The notes under the pieces: generated by a model
Database searches by the model: none
What the model was told of the DNA's origin: nothing
What the model saw: only the letters and a program-made list of their open reading frames with translations
Shown: piece by piece, positions 44,450-64,000 of the stretch
Position numbering within the stretch: position 1 is the stretch's first letter
Layout of the letters: every line of letters begins with the position of its first letter
Source of the DNA: an uncultured virus (IMG/VR IMGVR_UViG_3300032334_001252)
Lineage: Duplodnaviria > Heunggongvirae > Uroviricota > Caudoviricetes
Reading direction: 5' to 3' (one strand)
Length of the DNA: 64,000 nt
IMG/VR virus record: IMGVR_UViG_3300032334_001252
Made by a program: the position numbers and the translations under genes

Positions 44450-44486
44450 CTTGACTTTTTTCCTGAAATTCTGTTATAATAAACCT

Positions 44487-44615: not shown

Positions 44616-44616
44616 A

Positions 44617-45008: not shown

Positions 45009-45637
45009 TTAAATATACTGGAAACAATTTCGTTAAATTTAAAAAATCTGCCTTTGCTGAATTGATTACAGAATTGACAAAGGTCGAAGGCTACATGATT
45101 GGTCGATGCGACACATTAAATGGTTGCGACTATTGGGGCATTGTTGATGCTGAAGGCGAAGAAAATTGTTTTGTAAATTTAGCGCAAGGGTTATCGGGTG
45201 AAGCGCATGGTGTTACATGGGAACAACTAGCGACTGATTTTCCTCGTTTAATTGAATTGCTAGATGAGCACAATTTGCACTATTACATTGGTAAAAACTA
45301 TGTAGGCAATTGGGGCGTTCATCGTCATATTTATGATGAATCTAGCACAATGAATTTGTGCCTACTGGTAAATGGTAATAATGGCGGTACTGTTAACTTT
45401 CACGAATTTGATAACGAATCAGATTTTGAGGAAATGTCAGACACTCACATTTTTGACCTACACGACAAAGAATTTTCTAGAGATACCATTGTTGAATCGG
45501 TAGACATTAAAGATGGACAATGCTATTCTTTTAATACTGGTAAATGGCACTCGCACATTGTATATGGCAACAGAGCAGAATTATTTTTGCTACATTTTAA
45601 AGATGCGACAGATGTTATAGATTTGATAAATATGTAA
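45005..45637 (+). CDS. cupin/2OG-oxygenase-fold hypothetical protein
   Basis: H.H motif and FNTGKWHSH; start inferred from ATGA overlap. Confidence 0.55.
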   Translation: MIKYTGNNFVKFKKSAFAELITELTKVEGYMIGRCDTLNGCDYWGIVDAEGEENCFVNLAQGLSGEAHGVTWEQLATDFPRLIELLDEHNLHYYIGKNYVGNWGVHRHIYDESSTMNLCLLVNGNNGGTVNFHEFDNESDFEEMSDTHIFDLHDKEFSRDTIVESVDIKDGQCYSFNTGKWHSHIVYGNRAELFLLHFKDATDVIDLINM

Positions 45638-45672
45638 AAAGAAACAAAGGTTCTCGTTTTGAGAACCTTTGG

Positions 45673-45755
45673 GGCGCCAAAATTATATCATATAATTTTG
45701 GGGCGTGTCAAGCTTTTTTTGCTAGGTATTTTCCCTAATGTTGTATTTTTACAAA
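45673..45755. repeat. pre-early intergenic repeat copy 3
   Basis: GGCGCCAAAATTATA-TCA-TATAATTTTGG..TGTCAA..TAGGTATTTTCCCTAATGTTGTATTTTTACA. Confidence 0.9.
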
Positions 45756-45825
45756 TTTGCAAATTTTTTGTTGTGTGGGCGTTTTTCGTGCTATAATCTA
45801 CACATACAAACAAGGAATGATCTAA

Positions 45826-46302
45826 ATGGCTAAAATTACAAAGGTTTCAATATATGACATGGATGGCACAATCGTTGATTCACTGCATCGGTATCGTACT
45901 ATCGTTGATGCCAATGGCGAACGAATTGATCTCAATTATTGGAGAGAAAACGAATATCGGGCAATGGATGATTCACTATTGCCACTCGCAGAACAATACA
46001 AGCGAGATCTCGCAGATCAAAATTGTTATGTTATTATTGCTACTGCCCGTGTTCTTCGTTCCGCTGATAATCAATTTATTAGCGAGATTTTAGGCGAACC
46101 CGATTATATCATTAGTCGCAATGATGGATCGACAATATCAGGCGGTTTGCTAAAAATTAATGGTTTAGCAAAATTCTTCAATTTGATAACTTTCAAAGAT
46201 GCTGAATTTACTTTTTATGAGGATAATGTAGACTATCTCAAAGCGGTTTGCGATAGGTTTAATATTCGTGGCGTTTATGTTCCATCAAAACAAGGACACT
46301 AA
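45826..46302 (+). CDS. dmp: HAD-family deoxynucleoside-5'-monophosphatase (T5 Dmp-like)
   Basis: DMDGTIVDSLHR, LLPL, ATAR, FYED; pre-early context. Confidence 0.75.
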   Translation: MAKITKVSIYDMDGTIVDSLHRYRTIVDANGERIDLNYWRENEYRAMDDSLLPLAEQYKRDLADQNCYVIIATARVLRSADNQFISEILGEPDYIISRNDGSTISGGLLKINGLAKFFNLITFKDAEFTFYEDNVDYLKAVCDRFNIRGVYVPSKQGH

Positions 46303-46305
46303 AAA

Positions 46306-46383
46306 ATGATTACAACAATTTGCGTTATTGCATTTATTTTGGTAAAATTTGCATTGTTAGAATTTTTTGTGAAAGGACACTAA
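46306..46383 (+). CDS. 25-aa hydrophobic peptide
   Basis: AAGGA RBS; MITTICVIAFILVKFALLEFFVKGH. Confidence 0.45.
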   Translation: MITTICVIAFILVKFALLEFFVKGH

Positions 46384-46386
46384 AAA

Positions 46387-46536
46387 ATGATTCGTGTTAT
46401 ACTTGGCTTTTTGATAATCTTTGGTGCGGTTGGCGGTTTGGACAATGACCAAGATTTGCTCAATTGCATAATGGTTGCCATTTGTGGAATGTTCCTAATG
46501 GCATGGGGCGCATTTGATAAAAACGCAATGCGATAA
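46387..46536 (+). CDS. 49-aa two-TM peptide
   Basis: AAGGA RBS; MIRVILGFLIIFGAVGG... Confidence 0.55.
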   Translation: MIRVILGFLIIFGAVGGLDNDQDLLNCIMVAICGMFLMAWGAFDKNAMR

Positions 46537-46542
46537 TAATTA

Positions 46543-46569
46543 TCAAAATGAGAATGATTCTCATTTTGA
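46543..46569. promoter_or_regulatory. Fur box (perfect palindrome)
   Basis: AATGAGAATGATTCTCATT inside a 13-1-13 palindrome; extra GATAATAATTATC just upstream. Confidence 0.75.
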
Positions 46570-46641
46570 GGCGCCAAAATTATAGCATATAATTTTGGGG
46601 CGTGTCAATAGGGGTTTTCCCCTATGTTGTATTTTTACAAA
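46570..46641. repeat. pre-early intergenic repeat copy 4
   Basis: GGCGCCAAAATTATA-GCA-TATAATTTTGG..TGTCAATAGGGGTTTTCCCCTATGTTGTATTTTTACA. Confidence 0.9.
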
Positions 46642-46700
46642 TTGTGTGTCGGTCGCAATTTTTGTGATATAATTAAGCTCTTAACAACTGGAAAGCTCAA

Positions 46701-47396
46701 ATGGCTAAAAAACAATTCTTTGCAATTCTCGACACGGAAACTACCATTAATGATACTGTTGCCGATTTTGCAATTGTTATTTGTGATCGCACTGGTCGCA
46801 TTTATAATCAATGCGCGGTTTTAGTCGCTGGACATTATAACACAATGGAATTATTCCACGATAAAAATAATAATGATATTTGGGGTTATGAGGGTTTGAA
46901 TAAACGCAAAGCGGGTTATACTGCTATGCTTGATAATGGCGTTCGCATGATTGCTTCAGTTAATGCAATTAATAAATGGATTAATCAAGCCATTGGCAAA
47001 TATAATCCTACACTTACTGCATATAATCTTGCATTTGATTTGGCTAAATGCTCAAATACTGGTATTGATTTATCAGGTTTTAATGAGAAATTTTGCTTAT
47101 GGCAAGCAAGCATTGGCAATATTTGCAAAACTAAAAAATACAAACAATTTTGCTTAGATAATCACGGTTTTAATAATGTTACTAAGCATGGTAATATGAC
47201 ATTCAAAACTAATGCTGAGATGGTTTGCGGTTTTATTAATAATAATCTTATTACTGAGCCACATACTGCGCTCGAAGATGCTAGAGATTTTGAATTGCCT
47301 ATTTTGACAAATATTATTAAAAAACGTAATTGGCAAGATAATATTATTCCTTACGATTGGAATAAATTTCAAGTCAGAGATAATTTTAAGGCTTAA
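46701..47396 (+). CDS. DEDDh 3'-5' exonuclease
   Basis: ILDTETT, AYNLAFD, HTALEDA. Confidence 0.85.
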   Translation: MAKKQFFAILDTETTINDTVADFAIVICDRTGRIYNQCAVLVAGHYNTMELFHDKNNNDIWGYEGLNKRKAGYTAMLDNGVRMIASVNAINKWINQAIGKYNPTLTAYNLAFDLAKCSNTGIDLSGFNEKFCLWQASIGNICKTKKYKQFCLDNHGFNNVTKHGNMTFKTNAEMVCGFINNNLITEPHTALEDARDFELPILTNIIKKRNWQDNIIPYDWNKFQVRDNFKA

Positions 47397-47399
47397 TAA

Positions 47400-47648
47400 A
47401 TGGAAACTATCGGATATATTGGTTCTATTCTTTTGGCAATCTGTGGATTGCCACAAGCAATAGAATCATATAAAACAAAATCAAGCGAGGGATTAACTTG
47501 GGGTTTTATTTTATTATGGTTTTTTGGCGAAATATTTACATTCGCTTATATATTGCCAAAAATGGATTTGCCCCTATTAATTAATTATTCGGCAAACCTT
47601 ATATTTTTGATAATCATTCTTTATTTTAAAATATTCCCCAAAAAATAA
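47400..47648 (+). CDS. PQ-loop / SemiSWEET-like membrane protein
   Basis: GLPQA..Y.TKS..GL; three TMs. Confidence 0.8.
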   Translation: METIGYIGSILLAICGLPQAIESYKTKSSEGLTWGFILLWFFGEIFTFAYILPKMDLPLLINYSANLIFLIIILYFKIFPKK

Positions 47649-47671
47649 CCCTACGGGCAGTAGGGTTTTGG

Positions 47672-47740
47672 GGCGCCAATTTTATCACATAAAATTGGTC
47701 GCTGTCAATAGGTATTTTCCCTAATGTTGTATTTTTGCAC
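47672..47740. repeat. pre-early intergenic repeat copy 5
   Basis: GGCGCCAATTTTAT-CAC-ATAAAATTGG..TGTCAATAGGTATTTTCCCTAATGTTGTATTTTTGCA. Confidence 0.9.
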
Positions 47741-47780
47741 AGACTGGTTTTTTCGTGATTTTTCGGGTATAATTTCAGAC

Positions 47781-48158
47781 ATGGACAGACAGAAATTAGA
47801 ATTGAGATTAAATAGCAAATGTGAAAGCATTTGGGAAACCCTTGCCGAAATGCATGGTAGACTGGTGCGCTTCAATCCGCCAAAAATTGTGCTAGATGCT
47901 AGATTTTGGCGCACTGCGGGAATGTGTCACCAAGACGAAAATTTTATTCGACTAGGCTATAAATTTTTCTTGCACTCGCAAAATTATTGTGATACAATGG
48001 TAAAAATTATTTTACCGCATGAGATCATTCACCAAGCCGATTTTAATCTTTTTGGCGAGAGCGAAAAAAATTGTGGTCATGGCAAAAATTGGTGTAATCT
48101 TATGGTACAATATGGGCTTAAACCCGAAAAGCATCACTCAATGGACATTAAACGATGA
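47781..48158 (+). CDS. SprT-like zinc metalloprotease (second copy)
   Basis: TAG, PHEIIH, HGKNW...M...G; ATG 7 nt after TATAAT. Confidence 0.8.
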   Translation: MDRQKLELRLNSKCESIWETLAEMHGRLVRFNPPKIVLDARFWRTAGMCHQDENFIRLGYKFFLHSQNYCDTMVKIILPHEIIHQADFNLFGESEKNCGHGKNWCNLMVQYGLKPEKHHSMDIKR

Positions 48159-48370
48159 TAAACAAAATTTCATGGCTAGGAACAATTGCTTCAATTATTG
48201 GGGCTTTTGTAGTTGCTTCAAAATTATTTTTGGTAGGCTATTGCTTTTTTATTGTTGGTAGCGTATCATGGCTAATTGTCGGATTTGCTAGAAAAGATAA
48301 TTCGCTGATTGTTTTAAATGGTACTTTTTTTCTAGCGAATATTTTGGGTTTTTATAATTCTGTGGTATAA
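48155..48370 (+). CDS. small multi-TM membrane protein
   Basis: Three hydrophobic segments; ATGA overlap. Confidence 0.65.
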   Translation: MINKISWLGTIASIIGAFVVASKLFLVGYCFFIVGSVSWLIVGFARKDNSLIVLNGTFFLANILGFYNSVV

Positions 48371-48394
48371 TAAATTTTTGAAAGGAAAGTTAAA

Positions 48395-48715
48395 ATGAAA
48401 GCATTGAACTACACTCCAGAGCAAACGCTCGCAATGGTTGCCGATTATCAAAACGGCGTTTCTGTAGAACAAATTGCCGAAACACTTGGCAAAACTGTTC
48501 GTTCAGTTGTTGCAAAATTGAGCCGTGAAAAGGTTTATAAGGCTAAAGAATATATTTCTAAAACTGGCGAAAAACCAGTTAAAAAAGATGTTCATGCCGA
48601 TGCAATTGGCGCAATTTTGCGACTAAATGAAAATGATATTGAATCGCTTACTAAAGCAAATAAAAATGCTCTCAAAGCAATTTTTGATGCATTGGCAAAT
48701 TCAAAGCCAATTTAA
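48395..48715 (+). CDS. T5 A2/D3-like DNA-binding protein (paralog 2)
   Basis: Closely similar to 43650 ORF (NYTPEQT...KLSREKVY...KKDVHAD). Confidence 0.8.
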   Translation: MKALNYTPEQTLAMVADYQNGVSVEQIAETLGKTVRSVVAKLSREKVYKAKEYISKTGEKPVKKDVHADAIGAILRLNENDIESLTKANKNALKAIFDALANSKPI

Positions 48716-48798
48716 AATTATATAACATAATTTTAATAACCCTGCAAATTGCAGGGTTATTTTTTAGCTTAATAACCCTACAACCCGTAGGGTTATTT

Positions 48799-48870
48799 GC
48801 GCCAAAATTATAACATAATTTTGGGGCGCGTGTCAATAGGTACTTTCCCTAATGTTGGCAAAAAACAACA
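48799..48870. repeat. pre-early intergenic repeat copy 6
   Basis: GCGCCAAAATTAT-AAC-ATAATTTTGG..TGTCAATAGGTACTTTCCCTAATGTTG. Confidence 0.88.
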
Positions 48871-48877
48871 CCTAGTC

Positions 48878-48938
48878 TGGCACGATTCTTGCGCCGCGGC
48901 GGCTGGCACGATTATTGCTAATAGCAAGGTTCATGCCA
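48878..48938. promoter_or_regulatory. three sigma54 (-24/-12) consensus sites
   Basis: TGGCACGATTCTTGC (48878), TGGCACGATTATTGC (48904), minus-strand TGGCATGAACCTTGC (48924-48938). Confidence 0.8.
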
Positions 48939-48947
48939 GCAAATCCA

Positions 48948-48966
48948 AATGCGAATGATTATCATT
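48948..48966. promoter_or_regulatory. Fur box
   Basis: AATGCGAATGATTATCATT. Confidence 0.7.
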
Positions 48967-48976
48967 CAGCAAAAAG

Positions 48977-49028
48977 TTATCCACAGGTTATCCACAGAGG
49001 GCAAAAAGTTATCCACAGCTTATCCACA
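48977..49028 (+). promoter_or_regulatory. four perfect DnaA boxes
   Basis: TTATCCACA at 48977, 48988, 49009 and 49020. Confidence 0.9.
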
Positions 49029-49222
49029 GCAGCAGCGCTGCTGCGCCAGTGCAAAAGTGGGAAAGTGGGAAATTTTGAGGTACCGCGTGCGCCCATTATA
49101 TAGTGTAAAACCTAATTTGTCAAGTGTATTTTCGATTCAGGTTGCCTCAAGTGCAAAAATAATCTCTTGATCGATTTTGCAGAATTTTGTATAATTTATA
49201 TATTGATGGAAAGGAAACTGAG

Positions 49223-49354
49223 ATGACAGACAATGAATTTTTTAGGCTGGATCAGGAGCAGTGGTACCAAGATTTTGTGGATGCAGAAGTGTATGAAATT
49301 ATGGCAAGTACTATCCCACACGAAGAAAATTTCTTACTTGATGTTCCCTTCTGA
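49223..49354 (+). CDS. 43-aa acidic peptide ending DVPF
   Basis: AAGGA RBS and upstream TTGATC-17-TATAAT promoter; MTDNEFFRLD...FLLDVPF. Confidence 0.6.
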   Translation: MTDNEFFRLDQEQWYQDFVDAEVYEIMASTIPHEENFLLDVPF

Positions 49355-49406
49355 TCAGTGTATAATTTAATCTTTAACGGCGCAGAAACCAAAACACAAA
49401 GGACAT

Positions 49407-49715
49407 ATGATGACTGACAAAACTGTAAACTATACCCCTGAGCAAACTCAGCAACTCGTGCAAGCCTACCAAGACGGCCAAAGCGTAGAAACTTTGGCAA
49501 TGCAATTGGGTCGTAGCACTCGTAGCATTGTTGCTAAACTGTCACGCGAAGGCGTGTACAAAGCAAAGAGCAAAGCCAGTGGCGTTGCTCGTGTCAAGAA
49601 GGCTGACCTTGTTGACCAGATCGCTAACCGTTGCGGTGTAGCTCCAGAGATTTTCGAATCTCTCGAAAAAGCCAACCACGAAGTGTTGGAAGCAATTGTC
49701 GCTAACTTGCGTTGA
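49407..49715 (+). CDS. T5 A2/D3-like DNA-binding protein (paralog 3)
   Basis: VNYTPEQT...RSIVAKLSREGVY...ESLEKAN. Confidence 0.8.
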   Translation: MMTDKTVNYTPEQTQQLVQAYQDGQSVETLAMQLGRSTRSIVAKLSREGVYKAKSKASGVARVKKADLVDQIANRCGVAPEIFESLEKANHEVLEAIVANLR

Positions 49716-49781
49716 TTGTTACGGTTGGGGGTCAAAAAATATTAACTTGATCTCCAGCCCCTTTTCATGTATAATTATTCT

Positions 49782-49917
49782 ATAAACAGTCGGGAAGGGC
49801 TTAATGAATACCACAGCAATGTGGTGCCCGTCTGCACAAGAACACTTACTCAACCTTTGACAAAAACTATTAGTCTCTTACGTAAGGTAGTCTAGTTGCA
49901 ACGACTGTTATTTTTTA
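49782..49917 (+). ncRNA. candidate ~130-nt structured small RNA
   Basis: Promoter TTGATC-17-TATAAT (49747-49775); closing stem AACAGTCG/CGACTGTT followed by T-run; internal ACCACA-GCAA-TGTGGT hairpin. Confidence 0.55.
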
Positions 49918-50276
49918 CTTGAAAGTTTAAATCAATTAGCGTATAATTGATATATAGATTGGGTGGACAGCGGTCACTAAGCTAAACATAGTGATACGTC
50001 CTTAATTGTACAAAAGCTACTCACCGAGCTACAGCCCCAAGCTAAAATTATCTATAAATTAGTGTTATCAAGGTATCGTGTGCAGACGTGTACACTATTC
50101 GGGTCCCATCAGCCAGAGGCGGATCCTGATATAACTGCTTGGCGTAGGGAGGCTTAGCGGCTTGTCCCAAAATTGGCAAGATAACATTAATTTATGGGTA
50201 AATCGAGACCAGCTCTATGCGTAACTGGATAAATTTTTAATTGCGACTGAATGACTCTGGTTGCAGCCCGTTTAAA

Positions 50277-50378
50277 CACCTCTGATGAGTACCCTGGGAT
50301 GGGACGAAACTCTAAACCTTGAGGCAACTTTGCTGAGTATTCCCCATACACACGGTTGCATCGGTTTAGGGTCAGGTG
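50277..50378 (+). ncRNA. type I hammerhead ribozyme
   Basis: Stem I CACCU/AGGUG; CUGAUGA; stem II GU(A)CCC/GGGAC; GAAA; stem III ACUCUAAACC/GGUUUAGGGU; GUC cleavage triplet ending 50373. Confidence 0.85.
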
Positions 50379-50791
50379 AAAGAACACCATAAAATACAGC
50401 TATCTTCTAACCAAGAACTGGGTTCACCCAGCAATGTGAGTATGGAATCTTACTAGCGATTGAATAGTGTTGCGCAAACTATTCTATTAATAGCGCACCC
50501 CGACCCTAAACTGCAGAGGGGTCGCAAAAAATTGTCTGCAGGCGCTAAGCACTGAAACTGTAAGCCGACAAAGCCCAAAGTCGATAAAAATGTGGTGGGC
50601 AGTAGTGCCGAACCAATACTGTTAGTCACGGATATCCCGACGACCTTATATGGCAACTGTGGACTGAAACGTGCAGCTTACCTAAATTAGAGCAGACTCC
50701 AATTCACCACTGGCTAAGGCTTTTACCAATTTAGGGTCAGGTAGCTGTGGTGGCTTAAAAATCCTGTTGTGAGCAAAAAACTTCTAGAGTT

Positions 50792-50831
50792 CAAAACCCC
50801 GTACACGTAATGGTGACGGGGTTTTGTTTTT
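50792..50831 (+). terminator. intrinsic terminator
   Basis: CAAAACCCCGT...ACGGGGTTTTG followed by T5. Confidence 0.8.
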
Positions 50832-50955
50832 GGAGCTTGCTGCGCCATTATACCATAGTGCCAAAACTACTGTCAAGTGCGTTTTCAATAACTTGACCCT
50901 AAACCGCAACAATTTGACCGAATTCACGGCACCCGCGACCAATTGTGTGAAGACG

Positions 50956-50994
50956 CAAAAAAGCCTACTTAACTCACATTAAGTAGGCTTTTGT
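50956..50994. terminator. bidirectional terminator after D3-like gene
   Basis: AAAAGCCTACTTAA...TTAAGTAGGCTTTT. Confidence 0.8.
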
Positions 50995-51013
50995 GTTTTT
51001 GGGGCCAATTTGC

Positions 51014-51325
51014 TCAGTTTAGGGTCGATTCTTGCAGTTTAAGTTCAATTAACTTAAGCACCTGCTTATTAACCTTTTCCAAGCTCTCCAACATCTCTTC
51101 GTCGCACCCTAGCAGTGTGGCGATGGTGGCAATATGAGCTGACTTCTTAATTGGCACCTCACCACGCTTGTTGACATACTGCTTTTTGTGGTAGACGCCC
51201 AGAGAGCTCAATTTAGCAATCACACTGCGTTCTGGCACGTCTAAGGTGGTAGCTAGTGTGGCTACAGGAGTTCCACTTTTGTACTGTTCGATCAAATTGT
51301 CTGTAATTTCTTTTGTGTATTTCAT
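51014..51325 (-). CDS. T5 D3/A2-like DNA-binding protein (paralog 4)
   Basis: MKYTKEIT...RSVIAKLSSLGVY...ESLEKVN; follows D2-like gene. Confidence 0.75.
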   Translation of the reverse strand: MKYTKEITDNLIEQYKSGTPVATLATTLDVPERSVIAKLSSLGVYHKKQYVNKRGEVPIKKSAHIATIATLLGCDEEMLESLEKVNKQVLKLIELKLQESTLN

Positions 51326-52101
51326 AATAACCAAGGTAGTTCTGTTTCTAGTGTTTGACTTTTTGTAGCCAATTGTTGTACAGGTTCAGGCTTTTTAAAC
51401 ACATCATGCGGAATTATAGGTTCTGGCATTAAGTCCCAATTGTTGGGATCTAAGATCATGAGTTGATCTCTATGTTTGGGATGTGCTAACCAAATCTGAC
51501 ACAACATAGTTTGTGTTAGTTTAGGAAGATGACCAATCTCAGTATCTTGGATTCCTGTAAGACTCCAAGTACTTTCAGCAGGCTTTTGTTGGCCTGCCTT
51601 TGACCCACTTCTTTGAGTGAGCCCTTGCGTTCTAATTTCCAATAATCTTTCTGACCCTAAATCGCTATAAACCACATCCAATGCAGCCATCAATTCAGGT
51701 TCTAAAATCCACTCCAAATTATTTAGTCCACGCCACTCACTATAACTGATACCTTGATATAATTTTATACCAGCTAAAATTAGTGGAGTAAGACTACTAT
51801 ACTTAGGATTTGCAATTTGCTTTGCGACTAATAAACTTCTCTTGATTCTAGTCAATTTCCACAATTCCTGCTGTTTAGGGTCACTGCAGTTATGTTTTAG
51901 TGTAGCTAAAACATCAATACAACCACTAGGGCCATACATAACCGACCACCTGCCAAAGTTGCCAACAAGTTGGGGCAGCAGCCAAGATTCAAAGCGGTTT
52001 AACTTGTTGTCTTCAGCCCAAAAGTTTAGTTGTTTATCTTGTAGTTTAACAATCTCTTTTAAGTCCAAATATTCAATATCTTGTTTTTTAATTTGTATCA
52101 T
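51322..52101 (-). CDS. T5 D2-like protein
   Basis: C-terminal QIWLA...MILDPNNWD.MPE resembles T5 D2 (from memory); D2-D3 order conserved. Confidence 0.6.
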   Translation of the reverse strand: MIQIKKQDIEYLDLKEIVKLQDKQLNFWAEDNKLNRFESWLLPQLVGNFGRWSVMYGPSGCIDVLATLKHNCSDPKQQELWKLTRIKRSLLVAKQIANPKYSSLTPLILAGIKLYQGISYSEWRGLNNLEWILEPELMAALDVVYSDLGSERLLEIRTQGLTQRSGSKAGQQKPAESTWSLTGIQDTEIGHLPKLTQTMLCQIWLAHPKHRDQLMILDPNNWDLMPEPIIPHDVFKKPEPVQQLATKSQTLETELPWLL

Positions 52102-52130
52102 ATTTTTAAGCGTAGTATTCCTATTTATAG

Positions 52131-52260
52131 GGACTAGTGGATAATCCTAAACGACTTGACCCTAAATTGCAGAAACACACGCTTACGGGAACCCTCGTTG
52201 GAATCGTCCCATATCGAAATGTTTCTGCATTAGACTCTGTCTTTTGAATTCCACTAGTCC
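52131..52260 (-). ncRNA. rod-shaped structured RNA / 5' leader of D2-like gene
   Basis: GGACTAGTGGA/TCCACTAGTCC outer stem, TGCAGAAACA/TGTTTCTGCA inner stem; minus-strand promoter at ~52283-52312. Confidence 0.5.
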
Positions 52261-52437
52261 TTAACTTTTTAAGTTATACTAAATTATATCATAACGGGCA
52301 AATAGTTGGCAAGCTAATTTTTTAGTGAGCAGGTAATTCGTGATTTTTGTAAATCGTAGTTACAAATTTTGTGAATTATAATTATTATAACAGGTTGGGT
52401 GTTATTTAGCAAGTGTTTTAGTGCGGTAGCGGTGCAT

Positions 52438-52791
52438 TTACTTTAGTAATTGTTTTGCCTTGGTGGTAATGTTTTGCTGTGATTTTGTCAAGTCAATGTA
52501 ACCTAGGCTTTCAAGCACTGCTATGATAGCTAATGTATCTTCCAGTTCTGCTACTAAATCTTCCAAATTGGTGGTAGTTCTGTCTGGATGTTTATTGTTG
52601 GCCCCAAACCGCCTAATCTTGCTAACTGCCTGAATGCATTCAGCAGACTCTTCCTGCAATTTGTCTAGTAGGTAATTAGTTTGTGCTTCACGAATTGTGG
52701 TAGGTTGTAACAGTGGTTGTTCTTTAGGTATGTCTTTAATTTGTTCTGGTTTATAATTCATAAGGTCTTGCATTGGAGTAGTATGCATCAT
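52438..52791 (-). CDS. MazG-like NTP pyrophosphohydrolase
   Basis: QEESAE.IQAVSK..RFG...ELED. Confidence 0.7.
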   Translation of the reverse strand: MMHTTPMQDLMNYKPEQIKDIPKEQPLLQPTTIREAQTNYLLDKLQEESAECIQAVSKIRRFGANNKHPDRTTTNLEDLVAELEDTLAIIAVLESLGYIDLTKSQQNITTKAKQLLK

Positions 52792-52984
52792 AGGTGGTTT
52801 CCAATGATGACTAGTGTTAGTGAAATGAGTGTGATTAAGTTAATGGCAACAGCTACCACAAATATGGTTGCCGCTGCTACTATAAGTTGTTTGTAGTCTG
52901 GAGGCATTATAATTCCTTTTTTGTAAATTATATTATAGCACAAATACAAAAAGGATTCAAGTGCAGAGACTTGAATCCTTTTTA

Positions 52985-53140
52985 TTACTTAGGTTTCCGT
53001 TTAGGTCGATCAGGATTAGCTTCCACATCTTGCGGCAGTTTAGGGTCGAAAGTACCTGGCTTTGGTTTAGGTTGATTGTTAGGTACTGTTTCTGGTGGAT
53101 TAATGTGTTGAATAGGTTTATTAGGATCAGGTTTAGCCAT
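52985..53140 (-). CDS. 51-aa Pro-rich peptide
   Basis: GGAG RBS; MAKPDPNKPIQHINPP...KRKPK. Confidence 0.5.
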   Translation of the reverse strand: MAKPDPNKPIQHINPPETVPNNQPKPKPGTFDPKLPQDVEANPDRPKRKPK

Positions 53141-53340
53141 TATGGTTTATCTCCACTAGGAAAAGGCCAGCTAATATCTTCTTTAACTGGCTGTTGGTTG
53201 CCGAACCCAAAAGGGCATTTAGCAATGGGTTCTTGATAAGGTGGTAGCAGTTGATCTTGCGTACTAAAGTAAAACATCAATACTGCTAGTACAATAATAA
53301 AGGTAATTGCAGCAAATGCAATTGTAAGTTCTAGTCCCAT
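53140..53340 (-). CDS. small membrane protein
   Basis: N-terminal TM; WPFP motif. Confidence 0.55.
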   Translation of the reverse strand: MGLELTIAFAAITFIIVLAVLMFYFSTQDQLLPPYQEPIAKCPFGFGNQQPVKEDISWPFPSGDKP

Positions 53341-54029
53341 AATGCCTCGTAATATTTTCCAAATAATCTAAATCCGTTAGTAATGCGATCTTGCATTTGT
53401 TTACGGCCCTCCCAGTCACACTCACGATTACCTGTCAGCTCCATTGTGTAAGTAGCTTCTTCTTTTTGAGTGATAGGATTAAAGAATGTTTTGCCTGTAG
53501 GCACACTTTTAAAGTCACCATACTCACCAGTCCAAAACTGTGCATCCCAGTTGTCATTAGTTTTGCACTCAAATGCAAAGATCATCTCACCAATAGCCCA
53601 ATCCCAACGCTTAAAGTGGTTGTCGTCAATGTCCCACTCATTTTCTTTGGGTGGTGCGCTAGTGCTTTTAAAATTGTCAGGTACATCTTCGTCATCAACA
53701 CAAGGTGCACCCTGCTTAGTAGCCTGCAATTGACGCAGCATAGGCAGTGCAATAAGTGCTAGTGTAGCATCCATTGACCAAGTATCAAACTTATCAATGC
53801 GAACATAGATCTGACGTTTATTGTGACTGTCAATCCAGTTGCACAGTTTAGTTAACCAAGTATCTTTGCCATGTTTGTCTTCTGCAAGCCAAGTACCAAA
53901 TTTATGTACCCAATCAGGCTTGCGAGGAATACCGCACTCGTCTGGTGTTTCTTTTACCCAAAAGCAGAGTGCATTAGCAATTTGATAGGGCCCGATCCAA
54001 TTTGGATACTTTCCAATTTTAACTTTCAT
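53331..54029 (-). CDS. conserved hypothetical phage protein
   Basis: ID..DTWSMD.TLA...LPML; GFRLFGKYY..LWD. Confidence 0.75.
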   Translation of the reverse strand: MKVKIGKYPNWIGPYQIANALCFWVKETPDECGIPRKPDWVHKFGTWLAEDKHGKDTWLTKLCNWIDSHNKRQIYVRIDKFDTWSMDATLALIALPMLRQLQATKQGAPCVDDEDVPDNFKSTSAPPKENEWDIDDNHFKRWDWAIGEMIFAFECKTNDNWDAQFWTGEYGDFKSVPTGKTFFNPITQKEEATYTMELTGNRECDWEGRKQMQDRITNGFRLFGKYYEALWD

Positions 54030-54342
54030 CTAGTTCTCCAAATAATTTTTTATAGTGATAATCTAAATTTAGCTCAGCACGATCAAATACTTCGCTAGGA
54101 GTAGTTAATTCAGGATCTAGACCCTCAACCTCACAAGCCCAGTCACTCAGCACACAACGTGTTTCGTTTGCCATGCTGCGAGCACCTTGTTTATATGCTT
54201 GACGCATCCAAAAGTCCAATACATCAATATCAGTATTAAAACTACGCATAGCAACCATAGCACGATTGCTACCCATATCGGGATAAGGTTCTTCATAAAA
54301 CCATTTAATAAACTCACGATCAAGGTTGTACGGTTGTGTCAT
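54019..54342 (-). CDS. hypothetical protein
   Basis: Packed ORF in minus-strand early operon. Confidence 0.55.
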   Translation of the reverse strand: MTQPYNLDREFIKWFYEEPYPDMGSNRAMVAMRSFNTDIDVLDFWMRQAYKQGARSMANETRCVLSDWACEVEGLDPELTTPSEVFDRAELNLDYHYKKLFGELDES

Positions 54343-54610
54343 TTTCTGGCCTAATAAAATAATTAAAAAATTCTTTTGGTTCACTGTCACCATCTAACAA
54401 TATAGTATATATAGTAATTATTCGTTGACTAGGAGTATACTCTGGCTCTACAAAAACTTTACCTTCAGGCAGTGGTTTTTGTGTTGCTGCGGGCAATTCG
54501 CCTACAATATTACCAATAGTGTCATCACGATAGCTAATTATTACACCATGCAATTCGCCTTCTATGGTATTAATTACAACCCTGGTGTCAGGTTTAAAAT
54601 AAGTTATCAT
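54320..54610 (-). CDS. hypothetical protein
   Basis: Overlapping operon ORF. Confidence 0.55.
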   Translation of the reverse strand: MITYFKPDTRVVINTIEGELHGVIISYRDDTIGNIVGELPAATQKPLPEGKVFVEPEYTPSQRIITIYTILLDGDSEPKEFFNYFIRPENDTTVQP

Positions 54611-54843
54611 AGTAATTTTGCTAACATTCTTTTTTCATCTAGTACTACTTGCCAATAAGGTACTACAACAATATCTGCATCTACTGGTGTTGGCCACTTG
54701 GTGACATCATCTAATTTTACAGAATACATATAAACATCTGCTTGATAACCACCAGATATAATTGTACCTGTAGTAGTGGTCAATGAATTTACACTAACTA
54801 AAACGTAACTATCGTCAGGTATAATAGTATTAGGAGTTCGCAT
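54607..54843 (-). CDS. hypothetical protein
   Basis: AGGAG RBS; overlap with neighbour. Confidence 0.55.
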   Translation of the reverse strand: MRTPNTIIPDDSYVLVSVNSLTTTTGTIISGGYQADVYMYSVKLDDVTKWPTPVDADIVVVPYWQVVLDEKRMLAKLL

Positions 54844-55081
54844 TAAACACTCCTGGTTTAATATAACCAAATGTACTTAACAAGTGATTAGTAATCTTAG
54901 ATTCTACACAGCTAACAACACCTAAGTCGTAGGTAGTCAATGCACAGTGTTGTGTGTTAGCTGATTCAATTTCACTAATAACATCGCTAATAATTAAGTC
55001 TGCAAACTCTTGTAGTCTAGCATGGCTAACGCAGTGCTCTAGTTGTGCCTTAACAGCTAATTGTTTCATTCGTTCGTTCAT
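54830..55081 (-). CDS. hypothetical protein (MNERxKxLA family)
   Basis: MNERMKQLA...EFADLII. Confidence 0.6.
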   Translation of the reverse strand: MNERMKQLAVKAQLEHCVSHARLQEFADLIISDVISEIESANTQHCALTTYDLGVVSCVESKITNHLLSTFGYIKPGVFNANS

Positions 55082-55089
55082 TATTTATC

Positions 55090-55350
55090 CTATAAGATTA
55101 GTAGGGGTGTGCTATCCTTTGGATAGATATGCGATTGATGTAGAATACCTAAAGTAATACCATAAGTGGCTACGGTTATTTGAAGCCAAGTGTTGCCTCT
55201 CTGACTAGAGTCAAATAGAGCCATCAGAGGGTTCCTAAATTTTGGAAACTTTGTTAGCTTGAAAGGTTTTACTTTATTAGTTTTAAACTTTATGCTAATC
55301 TTCCACCACTTACTTTCTCGAAAGGGAGTATAGTAAATTACAGCAGTCAT
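55090..55350 (-). CDS. hypothetical protein
   Basis: Operon ORF. Confidence 0.45.
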   Translation of the reverse strand: MTAVIYYTPFRESKWWKISIKFKTNKVKPFKLTKFPKFRNPLMALFDSSQRGNTWLQITVATYGITLGILHQSHIYPKDSTPLLIL

Positions 55351-55556
55351 TTTAAGATCTCAGTAACAAATACTTCAAATTTCTTCTCATCAGACCACTC
55401 GGCAATTTCTTTAATTCGTTCGTTCATTTTGTTTTATCCATTTAAATAATCTATAATAGTACTTGAACTGAATCGGGTGGTGTTCTGGGTCTGGTAGTTT
55501 ATCACCAAACTGTTCCACCATACTACTGTAGACTTCTAATACTTCCGTATCTGTCA

Positions 55557-55745
55557 TCAATATGTTCCACTTGCGTGTTGCATTAAATAGTTATAAACTT
55601 TGCTTAAATCTTGTTTAGACATTTGTTCTGGTGTTATATTATCAAAAGCTAAGTTATTACCAGTCCACCATTTGCAAGCCATATGTTTACCTACTAGTGC
55701 AACAACTAATACTTGACAACGCTTTAACATAACGTCGTGGTTCAT
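55557..55745 (-). CDS. hypothetical protein
   Basis: WW...N.AFD..TP motif. Confidence 0.55.
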   Translation of the reverse strand: MNHDVMLKRCQVLVVALVGKHMACKWWTGNNLAFDNITPEQMSKQDLSKVYNYLMQHASGTY

Positions 55746-55963
55746 TAGTATGCTCCCATGCTGTTGTCTACTGCATGACTAATTTCAGGCAAAAACATCT
55801 CCAACACTTTATCCAAGTCGCCGTCGCCATGCTTTTGTGAACTACGCACAGCATTGTAAATGTCGTCTAGTAGTGCAAGATATTGAGGTCCGTTAAGATA
55901 AACGCGAGCATCTTCAGCACTTTCACATTTAATTGTAATATCAAACATATTTAACATCTCCAC
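55745..55963 (-). CDS. hypothetical protein
   Basis: Operon ORF, start uncertain. Confidence 0.5.
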   Translation of the reverse strand: MEMLNMFDITIKCESAEDARVYLNGPQYLALLDDIYNAVRSSQKHGDGDLDKVLEMFLPEISHAVDNSMGAY

Positions 55964-56147
55964 CTTTAGAATTAATACCGACTAAATCACGCATATTGTA
56001 AATAGGCACATAGTTGCTTTTGTGCATAGGTACAATGGTGTGTTTGTGAGCACGCGCACGCAACTCGCCACACTCCATGCAAAAATGATGACCCAAAGCC
56101 CAACGAGCTTTAGCTACTTCACGACCACAAGCTACACAGCAATACAT
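55941..56147 (-). CDS. zinc-finger small protein (DksA/TraR C4-like)
   Basis: C..CG.....R...G...C..C; PMHKSNY. Confidence 0.6.
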   Translation of the reverse strand: MYCCVACGREVAKARWALGHHFCMECGELRARAHKHTIVPMHKSNYVPIYNMRDLVGINSKGGDVKYV

Positions 56148-56205
56148 AAGGTTCTCCGATTAATTTATAAATATATTATAAATGATTTGACCCTAAGCCG
56201 CAAGA

Positions 56206-56568
56206 CTAAAGTTGTCGACCTAATCTGATTAGTTGTTCATGAAGCTGACGAATCACTTGTTTATAATGATTGACTGCTTGACGTTGACCTGGCAGCCAAT
56301 CTGGACGTAGACTTAGTGCCAACTCTTCATTTGGTGTAACCAATATGGTTTTGAGTGTATCATCACGCCAACGTAATTTTTCACAAAATATTAACACAGT
56401 TTCCAACTTAAATTTAGATACGTCAATATCATCACTATGCAACAACTCAGGCGGTAGTGATACAGCAATGCGTGCTCCGCCATTCTTTTCCATTTGTTCT
56501 AATAACCATACAGGTAGATCTAATATGGTTATTGGCTCAAACTCCGTTGTGTAAAGTACTACTTGCAT
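56206..56568 (-). CDS. hypothetical protein
   Basis: Operon ORF. Confidence 0.6.
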   Translation of the reverse strand: MQVVLYTTEFEPITILDLPVWLLEQMEKNGGARIAVSLPPELLHSDDIDVSKFKLETVLIFCEKLRWRDDTLKTILVTPNEELALSLRPDWLPGQRQAVNHYKQVIRQLHEQLIRLGRQL

Positions 56569-56722
56569 CTTTTTTCCTTAAAGTGTAGCTACCATCACCA
56601 TTGTCATCCCACATAATGGTATCGCCAATTTCCCAGCCTAAGGTATCCCACAACTCATCAGGAATCTGAAAGTATGCTTCACCACTAGGATCCATTTCAA
56701 TCTTGGTTGTGTAGGTTGTCAT
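56537..56722 (-). CDS. AbrB/MazE-like small DNA-binding protein
   Basis: IPDEL...LGW..GD...W pattern. Confidence 0.65.
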   Translation of the reverse strand: MTTYTTKIEMDPSGEAYFQIPDELWDTLGWEIGDTIMWDDNGDGSYTLRKKDASSTLHNGV

Positions 56723-56723
56723 A

Positions 56724-57314
56724 TTATTTATAGTTTAATGCTAATGAAATTCTAGGAACAGTATTTGTACCTTGCTCTACTAAATGTCGTAAATATGATC
56801 TAAAAATCAACAATAATCCTTGACGTGCAGGAAATTTAATTCTAGTAATATTTAGTTTATTTTTATATTTAATATCTTTTAGCGGAAACATATCAGGTTC
56901 CTTAGGATCTTCAAACATAATATTACCTGAATTTTCTGGCGCACTAATATAGTACACTGCACTAAATACATTTGCATTGTGTGCATGAAATTCTTGGTAA
57001 CTACCACTATCCGCTACATTAAACCAACCTGTATGTGGAGTATAGTTGCCTTCACAACCACTAATACGTGCAAATTCGTTAACGTGTTGAGTAATTAAAT
57101 TGACAAGTGGTTGAAACATTTTGTCTTGGTACAAGTCATGTGTGCCAAGAGTATTATAAGTATTGCCTAACCAACCTTCCCCACCTATAGCAGTATTTTG
57201 TTTTATTTGTAAACAATGTTTTGCTAATTCATAATTTTGTTCTAAACTAACTAAATCTTCTTTAACATAAAAAGCTACTGGAAACCATTCCTCAATTGCT
57301 GTTGGTTCAATCAT
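56724..57314 (-). CDS. TIGR02466-family putative 2OG-Fe(II) oxygenase
   Basis: QEFHAH..FSAVYY, LIFRSYLRH, RISLALN. Confidence 0.85.
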   Translation of the reverse strand: MIEPTAIEEWFPVAFYVKEDLVSLEQNYELAKHCLQIKQNTAIGGEGWLGNTYNTLGTHDLYQDKMFQPLVNLITQHVNEFARISGCEGNYTPHTGWFNVADSGSYQEFHAHNANVFSAVYYISAPENSGNIMFEDPKEPDMFPLKDIKYKNKLNITRIKFPARQGLLLIFRSYLRHLVEQGTNTVPRISLALNYK

Positions 57315-57982
57315 TGAAATATACTTTCAGGAAAGAAAGCTTCAATGGTTACAGGTGCAATAAAACGCAAATCATGTAAAATTTGTTGTGCAATATCTCT
57401 GTGTTCTCGCTGAGTGCTAGGGTCTAGTCGTTGTTTAAGGTAAAATATCCAACTACGCATATTGCCATTCATGTACATTCTGCTCATGGTCAAACCTTCG
57501 GGCAAAATGGCACGGGCTTGCTCTTTGGCAATGCCTAAACTAAGTGCATAATCATAGTTTTCTTGAGCCTTTTTCATAATATTGCTTTGCAATTGTTCCC
57601 ACTGATAAGCAATACGCCTATCATCATCATTTTCACGAAGGTTTAATTGCATGCTGTTTTGACGATTTTTAGCGTCTTGCAGTCTAGCCTCTCTATGCAC
57701 AAACTCGCCTAACTCACTCACATCTGCATAACGCTGTGAAAATTCTTGGAAACTAAACGATCTATGACGTAGTATTTGACGACCAATGTCACGTGTAGTA
57801 TTAATCTCTACACAAACATTAGCCATTTCAAAAGGACTAGTATGTCCCTCACGCATCATATATTTTAATAGTCCAGCAATTTGCTTATTAGTTTGATTAT
57901 CAGGATTTGATACTCTAGCCATGTATGCTATTTGTTTGTCAATGTCGGGTGTTGCCCAAATAATTTTTGTAGATTGTGTCAT
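57311..57982 (-). CDS. thyX: flavin-dependent thymidylate synthase
   Basis: H.SPFE, RHRSFSFQEFSQRY, EQAR.ILP, QREH. Confidence 0.96.
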   Translation of the reverse strand: MTQSTKIIWATPDIDKQIAYMARVSNPDNQTNKQIAGLLKYMMREGHTSPFEMANVCVEINTTRDIGRQILRHRSFSFQEFSQRYADVSELGEFVHREARLQDAKNRQNSMQLNLRENDDDRRIAYQWEQLQSNIMKKAQENYDYALSLGIAKEQARAILPEGLTMSRMYMNGNMRSWIFYLKQRLDPSTQREHRDIAQQILHDLRFIAPVTIEAFFPESIFQ

Positions 57983-58755: not shown

Positions 58756-58835
58756 TTTGGTTCTCTGTTAATTGTTTATAGTGTATATTATACTACAATA
58801 AGCTAGGGCTAGCAAGTGTAAAATTATTTTTGTTG

Positions 58836-59720: not shown

Positions 59721-60275
59721 ATGAAACCAAATTACTTTTACATTAATAACATCTTAACAAAAGAAGATTGTGAACTAATAGTTGCAAAACAATTAGAACA
59801 AAACTTTGAAAAAGGTACTACTAGTACAAAACAACAATCAATTTTTGAAAGAAATAGTTTTGTTAATTGGGTATTACCACAAACAATTTTAGACCCGTTA
59901 ATGTATAGAATAATGGACGCGGTTAGATTTCACACAATGAATGAGTTTGAATTTCCTGTTGGACAAGGAGAAATAATTCAATTTGGGGAATATGGATTTT
60001 TACAACATTATAGAGAACACATAGACTGTAACATAACTAAACCTTATAGATTTATAAGTGCTACAGTACAACTTACTGACCCTAAACAGTATTTAGGGGG
60101 TAATTTACAAATAAAAAGAGGACCATATGATTGGGAAACTACACCTAAACAACAAGGTATTTTAACAGTATTTCCAAGTATGTTACCTCACAGGGTTACC
60201 CCAGTTTTATGGGGTAAAAGGCACTCACTAGCACTATGGTTTGATATTGCTAGAGAGTATGAAGATGTTCAATAG
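59721..60275 (+). CDS. 2OG-Fe(II) oxygenase (PKHD-type), probably leaderless
   Basis: HID, Y.GG.L, FPS..PHRVTPV..G.R.SL..W. Confidence 0.88.
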   Translation: MKPNYFYINNILTKEDCELIVAKQLEQNFEKGTTSTKQQSIFERNSFVNWVLPQTILDPLMYRIMDAVRFHTMNEFEFPVGQGEIIQFGEYGFLQHYREHIDCNITKPYRFISATVQLTDPKQYLGGNLQIKRGPYDWETTPKQQGILTVFPSMLPHRVTPVLWGKRHSLALWFDIAREYEDVQ

Positions 60276-63146: not shown

Positions 63147-64000
63147 CACACACATTTAATCAAAACATTCAACGTATCGGTTTTGCTTGTAAAATCCAAG
63201 ATAGTACAGGCAAAGCTGACCCTAAACTGAACACAAAGACCACAACACTAACTTGGTTAAACAACCAACCACGCGATAAAAGTGTGCAAAAGCTAGAATT
63301 AATCATGGAAAGCAACTGCAATGCCATGAAACAGCAAATGCACTGGCTAGCGAAACAGCCTAACAATCAGCGTATGTTTCGCATTAGTAGTGATCTTTTT
63401 CCTGCGTATACCCATGACGACTGGACATGGTGGTATTACGAACAAAATCAAATCAAATATTTAGAAAAACACTTAGCAGAAGTTGGCGAGTTGGCTAGAC
63501 AGAATGACATTCGTCTTAGCTTCCATCCTGGTCAATTCTGCGTATTAGCATCGGAAAATGATGGAATTGTTGATAACAGTATCAGGGAGTTTGAGTATCA
63601 TACTGACGTGGCCAGGTATATGGGCTATGGCAAATCTTTTCAAGACTTTAAGTGCAATGTACACATCGGTGGTAAACGCGGACCTGCTGGCATTCAAAGT
63701 GCTCTAAAGAAACTTAGCACTGAAGCACGTAATATCTTAACTATCGAAAATGCCGAGTATACATGGGGTCTAGACGCTAGTCTAGAACTTATGCTTGACT
63801 GTGCCTTAGTCTTAGACATTCATCACCACTGGATTGCTAGTGGTGAATATATTACGCCAGAGGATGACCGTTTTAAAGCTGTTATCGAATCATGGCGTGG
63901 TGTACGTCCTGCCATGCACTATAGCGTTAGTCGCGAAGATGTAATCGTAGATCATGACCCTAACACAAAGCCTAATCTAATGGAACTGAAAGCTCAGGGT
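63137..64000 (+). CDS. uvsE: UV damage endonuclease UvsE (runs off window end)
   Basis: RIGFACK, RMFRISSDLFP, RLSFHPGQF, TIEN, LDIHHH. Confidence 0.92.
   Translation, partial: MALTHTFNQNIQRIGFACKIQDSTGKADPKLNTKTTTLTWLNNQPRDKSVQKLELIMESNCNAMKQQMHWLAKQPNNQRMFRISSDLFPAYTHDDWTWWYYEQNQIKYLEKHLAEVGELARQNDIRLSFHPGQFCVLASENDGIVDNSIREFEYHTDVARYMGYGKSFQDFKCNVHIGGKRGPAGIQSALKKLSTEARNILTIENAEYTWGLDASLELMLDCALVLDIHHHWIASGEYITPEDDRFKAVIESWRGVRPAMHYSVSREDVIVDHDPNTKPNLMELKAQG

Follow-up and report, generated by a model that had tools for sequence, protein, structure and literature searches.

A polar DNA box oriented toward a two-way hub in a clade of T5-like phages, with one copy that appears to be shared with a hammerhead ribozyme

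Background

In phage T5, the pre-early genes including A2 are followed by the untranslated injection stop signal (iss), which has a major nick and sits at the terminal repeat's inner end, and then by the early genes, as outlined in 10.1101/866236; A2 itself is presented in the bioRxiv account 10.64898/2026.04.02.716235 as an essential DNA-binding protein whose mechanism is undefined. What stops and restarts the injection, what A2 binds, and how the unmodified phage DNA escapes the host-destroying nuclease activity are the questions which the same two accounts (10.1101/866236; 10.64898/2026.04.02.716235) pose for T5-type phages. Here we describe a stretch of 64,000 nucleotides from an uncultured virus (IMG/VR record IMGVR_UViG_3300032334_001252), called the window throughout, together with its relatives, in which an asymmetric word, TTTAGGGTCR (hereafter the box), is concentrated in and around an iss-like untranslated stretch. 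The clade supplies a sharply defined word of ~20 bp, an adjoining family of candidate readers and a genome-wide orientation rule, and what is new here is the genome-wide polarity of the box, its selection at the codon level, and the covariation of a ribozyme that overlaps one of its copies.

Several described systems come close to such a word. Cluster A mycobacteriophages have numerous stoperators, asymmetric sites of 13 bp dispersed within genes as well as between them, whose orientation differs between the arms and follows the direction of transcription, and which are read by a helix-turn-helix protein; in the L5-type phages a repressor on such sites blocks RNA polymerase one way. Words that polarize a whole chromosome are, to our knowledge, known from bacteria only. 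There, the chromosome arm sets the orientation of asymmetric words, a principle outlined in PMC3384302. In the Ter/Tus fork trap, Chi/RecBCD and KOPS/FtsK, such words flip at two poles and a DNA-tracking machine reads them. The nick motifs of T5, BF23, tf and phiKMV-like phages, according to PMC3517423, are asymmetric 7-20-mers of 4-14 copies, strand-specific, placed similarly in related phages and found in coding as well as non-coding DNA, and the nicks all lie in one strand. In the literature searched, mostly at the level of titles and abstracts, we found no description of the box or of a phage word with a hub-and-arms polarity, and among the listed matches to the 9-mer TTTAGGGTC there were primers or unrelated uses and none on phages.

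Compared with the T5 iss (Repeat Region 3), the locus described here is alike in being ~1 kb of untranslated DNA with direct and inverted repeats at the end of a pre-early block, with A2-type genes adjoining; in the window, four DnaA boxes lie 1.3 kb off. There is no sequence likeness between the two: T5 has 0 exact boxes, and the T5 repeat word is not enriched here. In the T5 record AY543070 (L094-L100) the iss repeat word, of the GTGCAAATCCGACA type, is also seen outside the iss at ~12 kb and ~78 kb, all on the same strand. The repeat in the T5 iss is a direct repeat on one strand and T5 has no genome-wide set that flips by arm, whereas the boxes here run into coding genes. The T5 copy at ~78 kb presumably lies near the reported 64.8% major nick.

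Results and Discussion

The box in the window and in related genomes

Expected counts were obtained from dinucleotide-preserving shuffles of the window (n = 100). As against 0.20 copies expected, the window holds 11 exact copies of TTTAGGGTCR, a number attained in 0/100 shuffles, and a scan of the whole window places all of them within 50365-63226 and none in 1-50364. An earlier, sequence-only reading of the window had reported nine copies in strict alternation of strand over 50365-53048, two further ones at 60077 and 63217, and no exact copy in the late region, all of which was confirmed by the exact scan; both of the further copies are on the - strand, the tenth fitting the alternation and the eleventh breaking it. 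The three near-copies which it listed are real as well, with two of the coordinates off by one (correctly 56189-56197 and 63956-63964), and altogether the one-mismatch scan gives 28 matches in the window vs 12.4 expected. Because C at position -3 and a purine at -1 occur in 11/11 window copies, CNRTTTAGGGTCR is the right consensus, as that reading had proposed. Among 194 unique copies from relatives, 152 have C at -3, 174 a purine at -2, 180 a purine at -1 and 130 an A at +9, with a weaker TTGC 6-9 nt upstream. Our results thus show the 13 letters of CNRTTTAGGGTCR to be the core of an asymmetric DNA box of ~20 bp, with TTGCnGCRG-TTTAGGGTC-AG as the wider consensus. The copies and the other features discussed below are collected in Table 1.

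Relatives were gathered by two independent routes, namely a protein search with a 259-amino-acid (aa) open reading frame (ORF) of the window and a pattern search for an opposed pair of boxes. The former gave the closest relative (G002, 68% identity), with 14 exact boxes and a hub whose places correspond one-for-one to those of the window. The latter, demanding two opposed boxes 100-130 nt apart, gave 37 viral contigs, 28 of them with at least 3 copies; nine loci (9/37) carry just the two demanded copies and are probably due to chance. Since this set is selected by the box itself, a protein-profile search with the 259-aa ORF was added, and 54 of its 59 loci have at least 3 exact boxes, while the 4 with none are the most divergent. 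Near-complete genomes carry 12-20 boxes each vs 0-2 for the reversed control, and TTTAGGGTC is the top over-represented 9-mer in three of the four near-complete relatives (G003, G006, G007), a tandem repeat ranking above it in G004; together with the count in the window, this bears out the excess over background that the sequence-only reading had put forward for checking. The box is kept across phages of 36-46% G+C, and every genome combines a single hub, in which 4-10 exact boxes stand in both orientations, with 5-13 dispersed copies. Strict alternation within the hub is also seen in the closest relative (+-+-+-+), while the hubs of eight other relatives contain the two orientations in roughly equal numbers, not in strict alternation (e.g. 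G007, +--++-+-).

T5 and Vibrio phage 234P1 have 0 exact boxes, with one-mismatch counts equal to the control; the nearest record (G001) is without the box, yet it covers none of window 44-64 kb; and the 20-mer around copy 1 has zero matches in viral contigs. Among INPHARED phages, no match was found to the DNA of 49800-53300, nor, at the protein level, to the 259-aa ORF, the first A2-like paralog or a 231-aa ORF.

Table 1. Positions of the box copies, neighbouring genes, ribozyme elements and other signals in the window
Feature	Position	Strand	Remark
Box copy 1	50365..50374	+	also 3' strand of hammerhead stem III and GUC triplet, predicted cleavage after 50373
Box copy 2	50501..50510	-	untranslated hub
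Box copy 3	50730..50739	+	untranslated hub
Box copy 4	50894..50903	-	12/12 sigma-70-like promoter after the box on the - strand, 50876 to 50847
Box copy 5	51018..51027	+	within 3' end of A2-like gene 3
Box copy 6	51652..51661	-	within 259-aa ORF, read xxT TTA GGG TCx; kept in 20/23 unique orthologs
Box copy 7	51874..51883	+	within 259-aa ORF as GAC CCT AAA; opposite-strand partner of copy 6, place varies by lineage
Box copy 8	52157..52166	-	leader of 259-aa ORF
Box copy 9	53039..53048	+	right edge of hub
Arm copy	60077..60086	-	hub-pointing; antisense in + strand ORF
Arm copy	63217..63226	-	hub-pointing; within UvdE-like + strand ORF
Near-copy TTGAGGGTC	54120..54128	-	good flanks; hub-pointing despite - strand gene
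Near-copy CTTAGGGTC	56189..56197	-	hub-pointing despite - strand gene
Near-copy TTTAGGGTT	59104	+	scan of window
Near-copy GTTAGGGTC	63956-63964	-	scan of window
A2-like helix-turn-helix paralog 1, 106 aa	48395..48715	+	candidate box reader; T5 A2 alignment, weak Pfam
A2-like paralog 2, 102 aa	49407..49715	+	T5 A2 alignment, weak Pfam
A2-like paralog 3, 106 aa	51014..51334	-	T5 A2 alignment, Pfam none
Clade-specific 259-aa ORF	51322..52101	-	carries two boxes; gene calls
Hammerhead ribozyme	50277..50378	+	predicted self-cleaving; fold and covariation
Hammerhead stem I	50277-50281 (CACCU) with 50374-50378 (AGGUG)	+	closes after cleavage site
Hammerhead core CUGAUGAG	50282-50289	+	3' of the 5' strand of stem I
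Hammerhead stem II	50289-50305	+	short
Hammerhead CGAAAC	50305-50310	+	after stem II
Hammerhead stem III, 10 bp	50309-50318 with 50363-50372	+	3' strand is GGUUUAGGGU, then C
Terminator-like two-way hairpin	50956..50995	.	between box copies 4 and 5
Four perfect DnaA boxes TTATCCACA	48977..49028	+	two tandem 29-nt units; 1.3 kb left of hub

Selection on the box as DNA

The genes that contain a box indicate on which level it is maintained. The site of copy 6 falls in the same alignment column in 20 of the 23 unique orthologs of the 259-aa ORF (18 exact, 2 with one mismatch), always in the frame given in Table 1, while the neighbouring codons vary freely and the proteins share 30-68% identity. 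Its opposite-strand partner stands at column 267, 75, 236 or 449 according to the lineage, and as this place differs between lineages, the pair is maintained while one of its members turns over. Of the unique arm boxes, 17/66 lie outside ORFs, and the 49 in ORFs occupy two reading frames, GAC CCT AAA in frame for 38 of the 41 antisense ones and xxT TTA GGG TCx for the sense ones (8/8). Moreover, when all Asp-Pro-Lys tripeptides of six contigs are considered, the spelling GACCCTAAA is used in 41/61, compared with 10.4% from codon usage (p ~3e-26). The conservation at synonymous positions of related phages, whose absence would have spoken against the sequence-only reading, is therefore present, and the box is under selection as DNA.

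Orientation of the box on the genome

In the near-complete relatives (~98 kb), the dispersed boxes are '-' to the right of the hub and '+' to its left, and there is a second switch far from the hub. In other words, the arrows 5'-TTTAGGGTC-3' point to the hub from both arms and give the clade a two-armed genome polarity. Among the non-hub exact boxes of ten contigs, 69/71 are hub-pointing, as are 86/103 near-copies, where 1-3 near-copies per genome are due to chance; at 55 loci defined by protein, the same holds for 36 of the 38 unique flank boxes; and in five further near-complete genomes, likewise found by protein, the arm boxes fall into two uniform domains without exception (38/38, as read from the tabulated copies). 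This second switch lies close to the antipode of the hub, roughly half of the map away from it. For example in one genome of 102 kb (G013), the flip lies between boxes at 52638 and 53184 (L282 3638 and 4184), 546 bp apart and ~49 kb from the hub, and both of these boxes, one sense and one antisense, share a single - strand ORF of 286 aa. This ORF would be a place to look for an origin or a terminus. As a separate observation, a '-' box stands 6-10 kb from the hub gene in many of the protein-defined relatives.

The box set thus has an arm-set orientation with two switch points, as replichore-type words have, and among the bacterial words Ter is the closest in length and in its near-absolute polarity. 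It differs from them in that the genome is a ~98-kb phage genome, the box has ~20 bp and occurs once per 5-10 kb, the reader (for which there is a candidate) is probably encoded by the phage, and nothing like the dense two-way hub is known at dif or Ter. A reading by a host enzyme, in which the box would be a Chi-like or KOPS-like signal that shields the linear DNA from a RecBCD/AddAB-type nuclease at its ends or steers a translocase, is nevertheless to be considered; if T5-like ends flank the terminal repeat, the Chi rule would put all of the arm boxes in the active orientation toward the nearer end. How the ends of T5 are protected from RecBCD is named as an open question in 10.1101/866236. 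We regard this reading as quite improbable: the known words have 5-8 nt, compared with 13-20 nt here; phages of such different G+C content would need hosts that share one signal; and the pre-early block between the left end and the hub would be left unprotected. In addition, a 16-mer scan of bacterial genomes gave at least 120 matches, single, scattered across all phyla and at chance level, with no genome standing out among those listed.

The relation of the boxes to transcription bears on a further possibility, namely that they are stoperator-like operators. A family of helix-turn-helix genes stands beside the cluster, the asymmetric 13-mer has dozens of dispersed copies, and 57/66 boxes of the long arms are antisense to the gene there. 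The last figure follows from the genes of those arms, which mostly point away from the hub. In the two blocks that adjoin the hub, where the genes point toward it, position prevails, which means that the polarity follows the map and not the genes; over all boxes at which position and gene strand conflict, 8 exact copies side with position and 1 with the gene strand, the figures for near-copies being 19 and 6. At the protein-defined loci 11 boxes are sense and 15 antisense to the local ORF, though nearly all are hub-pointing; the flip boxes of G013 have both orientations in one ORF; and a '-' box of G006 lies 3.2 kb past the point where early and late genes converge, still short of the antipode of the hub. 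No association with promoters was found. Thus the boxes follow hub position where the stoperators of cluster A follow transcription, and as a uniform rule the stoperator explanation was rejected; these phages, moreover, are T5-like, with no sign of lysogeny in their annotated parts. The chance that such operators explain the set is in our judgement slight.

The strongest competitor to our preferred explanation, though in itself rather unlikely, is that a phage nicking enzyme recognizes the boxes, with one strand-specific nick in the virion DNA per box and the hub as the counterpart of the major nick in the T5 iss. T5-like phages are the classic nicked phages, and the T5 record places a major nick at 9748 (- strand) within the iss. 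In addition, the box and the nick motifs of T5, BF23, tf and the phiKMV-like phages have in common a short asymmetric consensus, a few to some dozen copies, strand specificity, similar places in related phages and an occurrence in both coding and non-coding DNA (PMC3517423), and conservation extends ~12 nt 5' of GTC and only 1-2 nt 3' of it, so sharp a stop being what a cutting site might show. What speaks most against nicking is the orientation, as the reported nicks keep to a single strand genome-wide; here the arm sets the strand and boxes on both strands share the hub, where opposed nicks would come 130-880 bp apart, and the single-strand rule of phage nick motifs was accordingly rejected for this set. 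The T5 motif (R/GCGCRGG) is unrelated, and neither an HNH gene, such as the sequence-only reading had in mind, was found in window 43-64 kb, nor any other nickase gene beside the hub.

The same one-sided conservation would also suit priming. Near-copies that keep the polarity nearly always retain GGGTC (as in CTTAGGGTC, TTGAGGGTC and TTTGGGGTC), and GGGTC is the strongest site of T7-type primases, hence the boxes might be preferred priming sites on the lagging-strand template, their conserved 5' part being copied into the primer. A primase and a DnaB-like helicase are encoded, and if the forks start near the centre, as is reported for T5 by papers cited in 10.1101/866236, the arrows from mid-genome to the hub run in the direction of the lagging-strand template. 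Such a function is nonetheless improbable, considering that ordinary lagging-strand priming would call for many more sites than one per 5-10 kb, that primases need 3-5 nt and not ~20, and that the two-way hub and the fixed places inside it are unaccounted for; the specificity, too, is borrowed from T7.

Gene order around the hub and a possible reader of the box

The window is part of a tailed phage with ~36% G+C, whose large terminase is ~51% identical to the terminases of T5-like Vibrio phages. From 43.4 kb down to 1 the - strand carries the late genes, with terminase, portal, tail tube, tape measure and a protease-capsid fusion among them; small + strand genes occupy 43.6-49.9 kb; an untranslated stretch of ~1.1 kb extends over 49.9-51.0 kb; and to its right come - strand genes at 51.0-59.4 kb and then + strand genes with two tRNAs. 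This order of a late block, a pre-early-like block with A2-like genes, the hub and an early block is the same as in T5. Three A2-like paralogs flank the untranslated stretch, with an end-to-end alignment to T5 A2 at 25% identity (pairwise BLASTP E 0.002); the first and second of them have weak Pfam helix-turn-helix matches below the curated cut-offs and the third has zero Pfam matches. A2-like genes also flank the hub in all four complete relatives that were checked (4/4). The sequence-only reading had supposed a DNA signal just inside the second-step-transfer DNA, and of this the DNA level and the iss-like position hold, while the confinement to that border does not, as relatives carry the box genome-wide including in late genes.

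As to where the terminal repeat ends, contig depth gives a weak hint. In contigs of sequencing run X1 that match the window exactly, the depth is 54-64 at 45.0-49.4 kb vs 34-43 at 53.3-62 kb, a step of ~1.5-fold in contig depth, all nine runs being available as assembled contigs, with uncovered parts and runs of small share set aside as evidence; the repeat might end near 51.7 kb, inside the box cluster. A terminal repeat of 126 bp in G003 was discarded as a physical end, being an assembly overlap.

Our preferred explanation, which we hold only tentatively, is that proteins, probably the A2-like paralogs, bind the box as a polar site at which a machine tracking along the DNA is oriented or stopped. 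The box would be read as duplex DNA by a phage protein, for which the three A2-like helix-turn-helix paralogs on both sides of the hub are the best candidates, judged by their neighbourhood and by what is known of A2. Complexes with one face could then act as one-way signs or barriers, by the logic of Ter/Tus or of Chi, for a machine that may be the replication fork or else a helicase-nuclease entering from the genome ends, with the hub as the place at which whatever travels along either arm would come to a halt. Should replication begin near the centre, as papers cited in 10.1101/866236 describe for T5, each box would be met tail-first by forks that run together at the hub; a nuclease coming in from the ends would meet each box head-on. 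The hub would need both orientations because the terminal repeat, provided that the hub lies in it, stands at both genome ends.

Several points weigh against this explanation of the box as a protein-bound polar site. The reader is a guess from the neighbourhood and its binding a prediction, the likeness to A2 being weak at the identity and E value given above, and since T5 and 234P1 are without the box, the genetics of T5 is not directly transferable. The terminal repeat is located by the ~1.5-fold step in contig depth. The conservation profile around GTC would suit an enzyme that starts or cuts there just as well. Neither the tracking model nor the terminal repeat explains the near-strict alternation, and the tracking model leaves the replacement of a lost partner box elsewhere unexplained as well. 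Besides, the contigs are related to each other, such that the box counts are non-independent events, and the genes were called as crude longest ORFs by our own script instead of a gene finder.

A broader idea, which we consider doubtful, is that the phage has a code for the architecture of its own chromosome, in which an A2-like reader and ~15 hub-pointing boxes mark the DNA as self and give it a direction, such that helicase-nucleases or forks of phage or host are stopped or steered on phage DNA only. If true, it would answer, for this clade, both how the unmodified genome is spared and what A2 has as its target. No Tus-like or FtsK-like gene was seen among the 34 early-arm ORFs of G006.

A predicted hammerhead ribozyme on one box copy

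The claim of the sequence-only reading that copy 1 is the stem III and GUC strand of a hammerhead is supported by motif, fold and covariation. The CUGAUGA...GAAA and GUH that a hammerhead has at its junction are present as CTGATGAG, CGAAAC and GTC (50371-50373), and the minimum free energy fold yields exactly the hammerhead junction. By a strict script, the hammerhead core is found in the hubs of 21/38 sources. In 16 unique hammerheads, 84.2% of the cells are paired vs 75.1% in shuffles (0/500 as high), scored on a structure that we specified, and slid controls come to 20-50%; 11 of its 20 pairs change on both sides, stem II is compensatory in 4/5, and stems I, II and III all covary. RNAalifold unaided did not recover the hammerhead. 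In 15 of these 16 the box, exact or with one mismatch, serves as the cleavage strand, and in L026, where the box is changed to TTGAGGGTC, the partner strand has changed along. From the predicted pairing, the ribozyme appears to have taken over one box for its stem III and GUC site, the other strand of the stem being a degenerate copy in opposite orientation. Rfam gave no hammerhead at E<=1 in window 44000-64000 and none at the gathering score in 7 relatives, likely because of the long insertion in stem III. The predicted ribozyme is like known hammerheads with stem I open (type I topology) in CUGAUGAG, CGAAAC and the GUC at the three-way junction, and it differs by a 44-nt insertion in the loop of stem III and by a cleavage strand that doubles as a genomic DNA box. 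Such an overlap is a small and clear case of one sequence used at two levels.

This overlap raises the question of whether the boxes in general act in RNA, either as sites that the hammerhead cleaves in trans or by pairing among themselves or with the RNA of the hub. Apart from the near-constant use of a box as the substrate strand, opposite boxes can form helices of 9-15 bp, and their purine/pyrimidine degeneracy suits G-U wobble. The AGG that would pair with stem I, though, follows only 2/11 window copies, and the arm orientation ignores the transcribed strand. RNA stems between neighbouring boxes were rejected as well: of 13 opposed pairs, 10 have inner flanks able to pair, which equals the ~75% given by the pyrimidine/purine preference alone, and the flanks of paired boxes show no covariation beyond this preference. 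An RNA role of the set is thus hardly to be expected, and the suggestion of RNA processing at each GUC was not upheld.

Around the ribozyme, a conserved and probably structured stretch (ccagctctatgcgtaactggataa ... gcagccc) lies directly 5' of the hammerhead in the window (50190-50270) and in L019, L020 and L037, and a tRNA gene replaces it in L026, L040 and L051, ending just 5' of the ribozyme in L040 and L051. In L019, L020, L041, L043 and L052, the 3' product after the predicted cleavage site begins with AGGACGAAACCC ... and ends near CTATGAG, and these may be parts of a second hammerhead-like motif in permuted form.

Other features of the window and its relatives

A sigma-70-like promoter with a TG extension lies after box copy 4 (12/12, 50876-50847 on the - strand) and opposes the + strand transcript of the hub, which implies convergent and overlapping transcription there; the spacing between box and promoter recurs in 10-11 relatives. 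As a general element of sigma-70 promoters the box was rejected, since over 249 unique boxes a hexamer occurs at any one offset in only 10-11, from two orthologous sites, and the TTGACC contained in 46 boxes is the box itself. Sites of a shufflon or invertase were rejected too: there is no recombinase among the hub neighbours, gene order is collinear in four complete relatives, and no strand-change joint at a box was found among the listed matches of run contigs.

Near-copies in both orientations also surround the terminase genes, at 41322-42561 in the window, 76.5-77.8 kb in G003 and 9.9-11.3 kb in G004. This group marks the other border of the pre-early-like block, where, in G004, the divergent gap contains an exact copy.

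The T5 iss region is known for paired DnaA boxes. In the window, the four DnaA boxes at 48977-49028 compare with 0.72 expected and lie outside the hub; such a cluster occurs in none of the four near-complete relatives that span the region (G003, G004, G006, G007), some of the five other scanned contigs not covering it.

The 259-aa protein has zero Pfam or PHROG families, zero Atlas matches and no Foldseek PDB match at E<=0.001, and its AF2 model has a pLDDT of 61.7. In the late region, a 1474-aa ORF at 12641-17065 (- strand), amid three other ORFs of ~1500 aa, has no PHROG match at E<=0.001, and a single ORF of 654 aa at 37173-39137 (- strand) matches both head-maturation-protease and major-head-protein families, hence a fused protease-capsid gene.

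Finally, six direct copies of a 60-90-nt unit are spread over 43515-48867, starting at 43515, 44404, 45710, 46596, 47696 and 48824. They stand between the pre-early-like genes at intervals of ~0.9-1.3 kb; all six have TGTCAATAGGTAYTTTCCCTAATGTTGTATTTTTRCA and five a GC-clamped AT hairpin, and they look like terminator-promoter cassettes, with a CCCTAA core that is faintly box-like.

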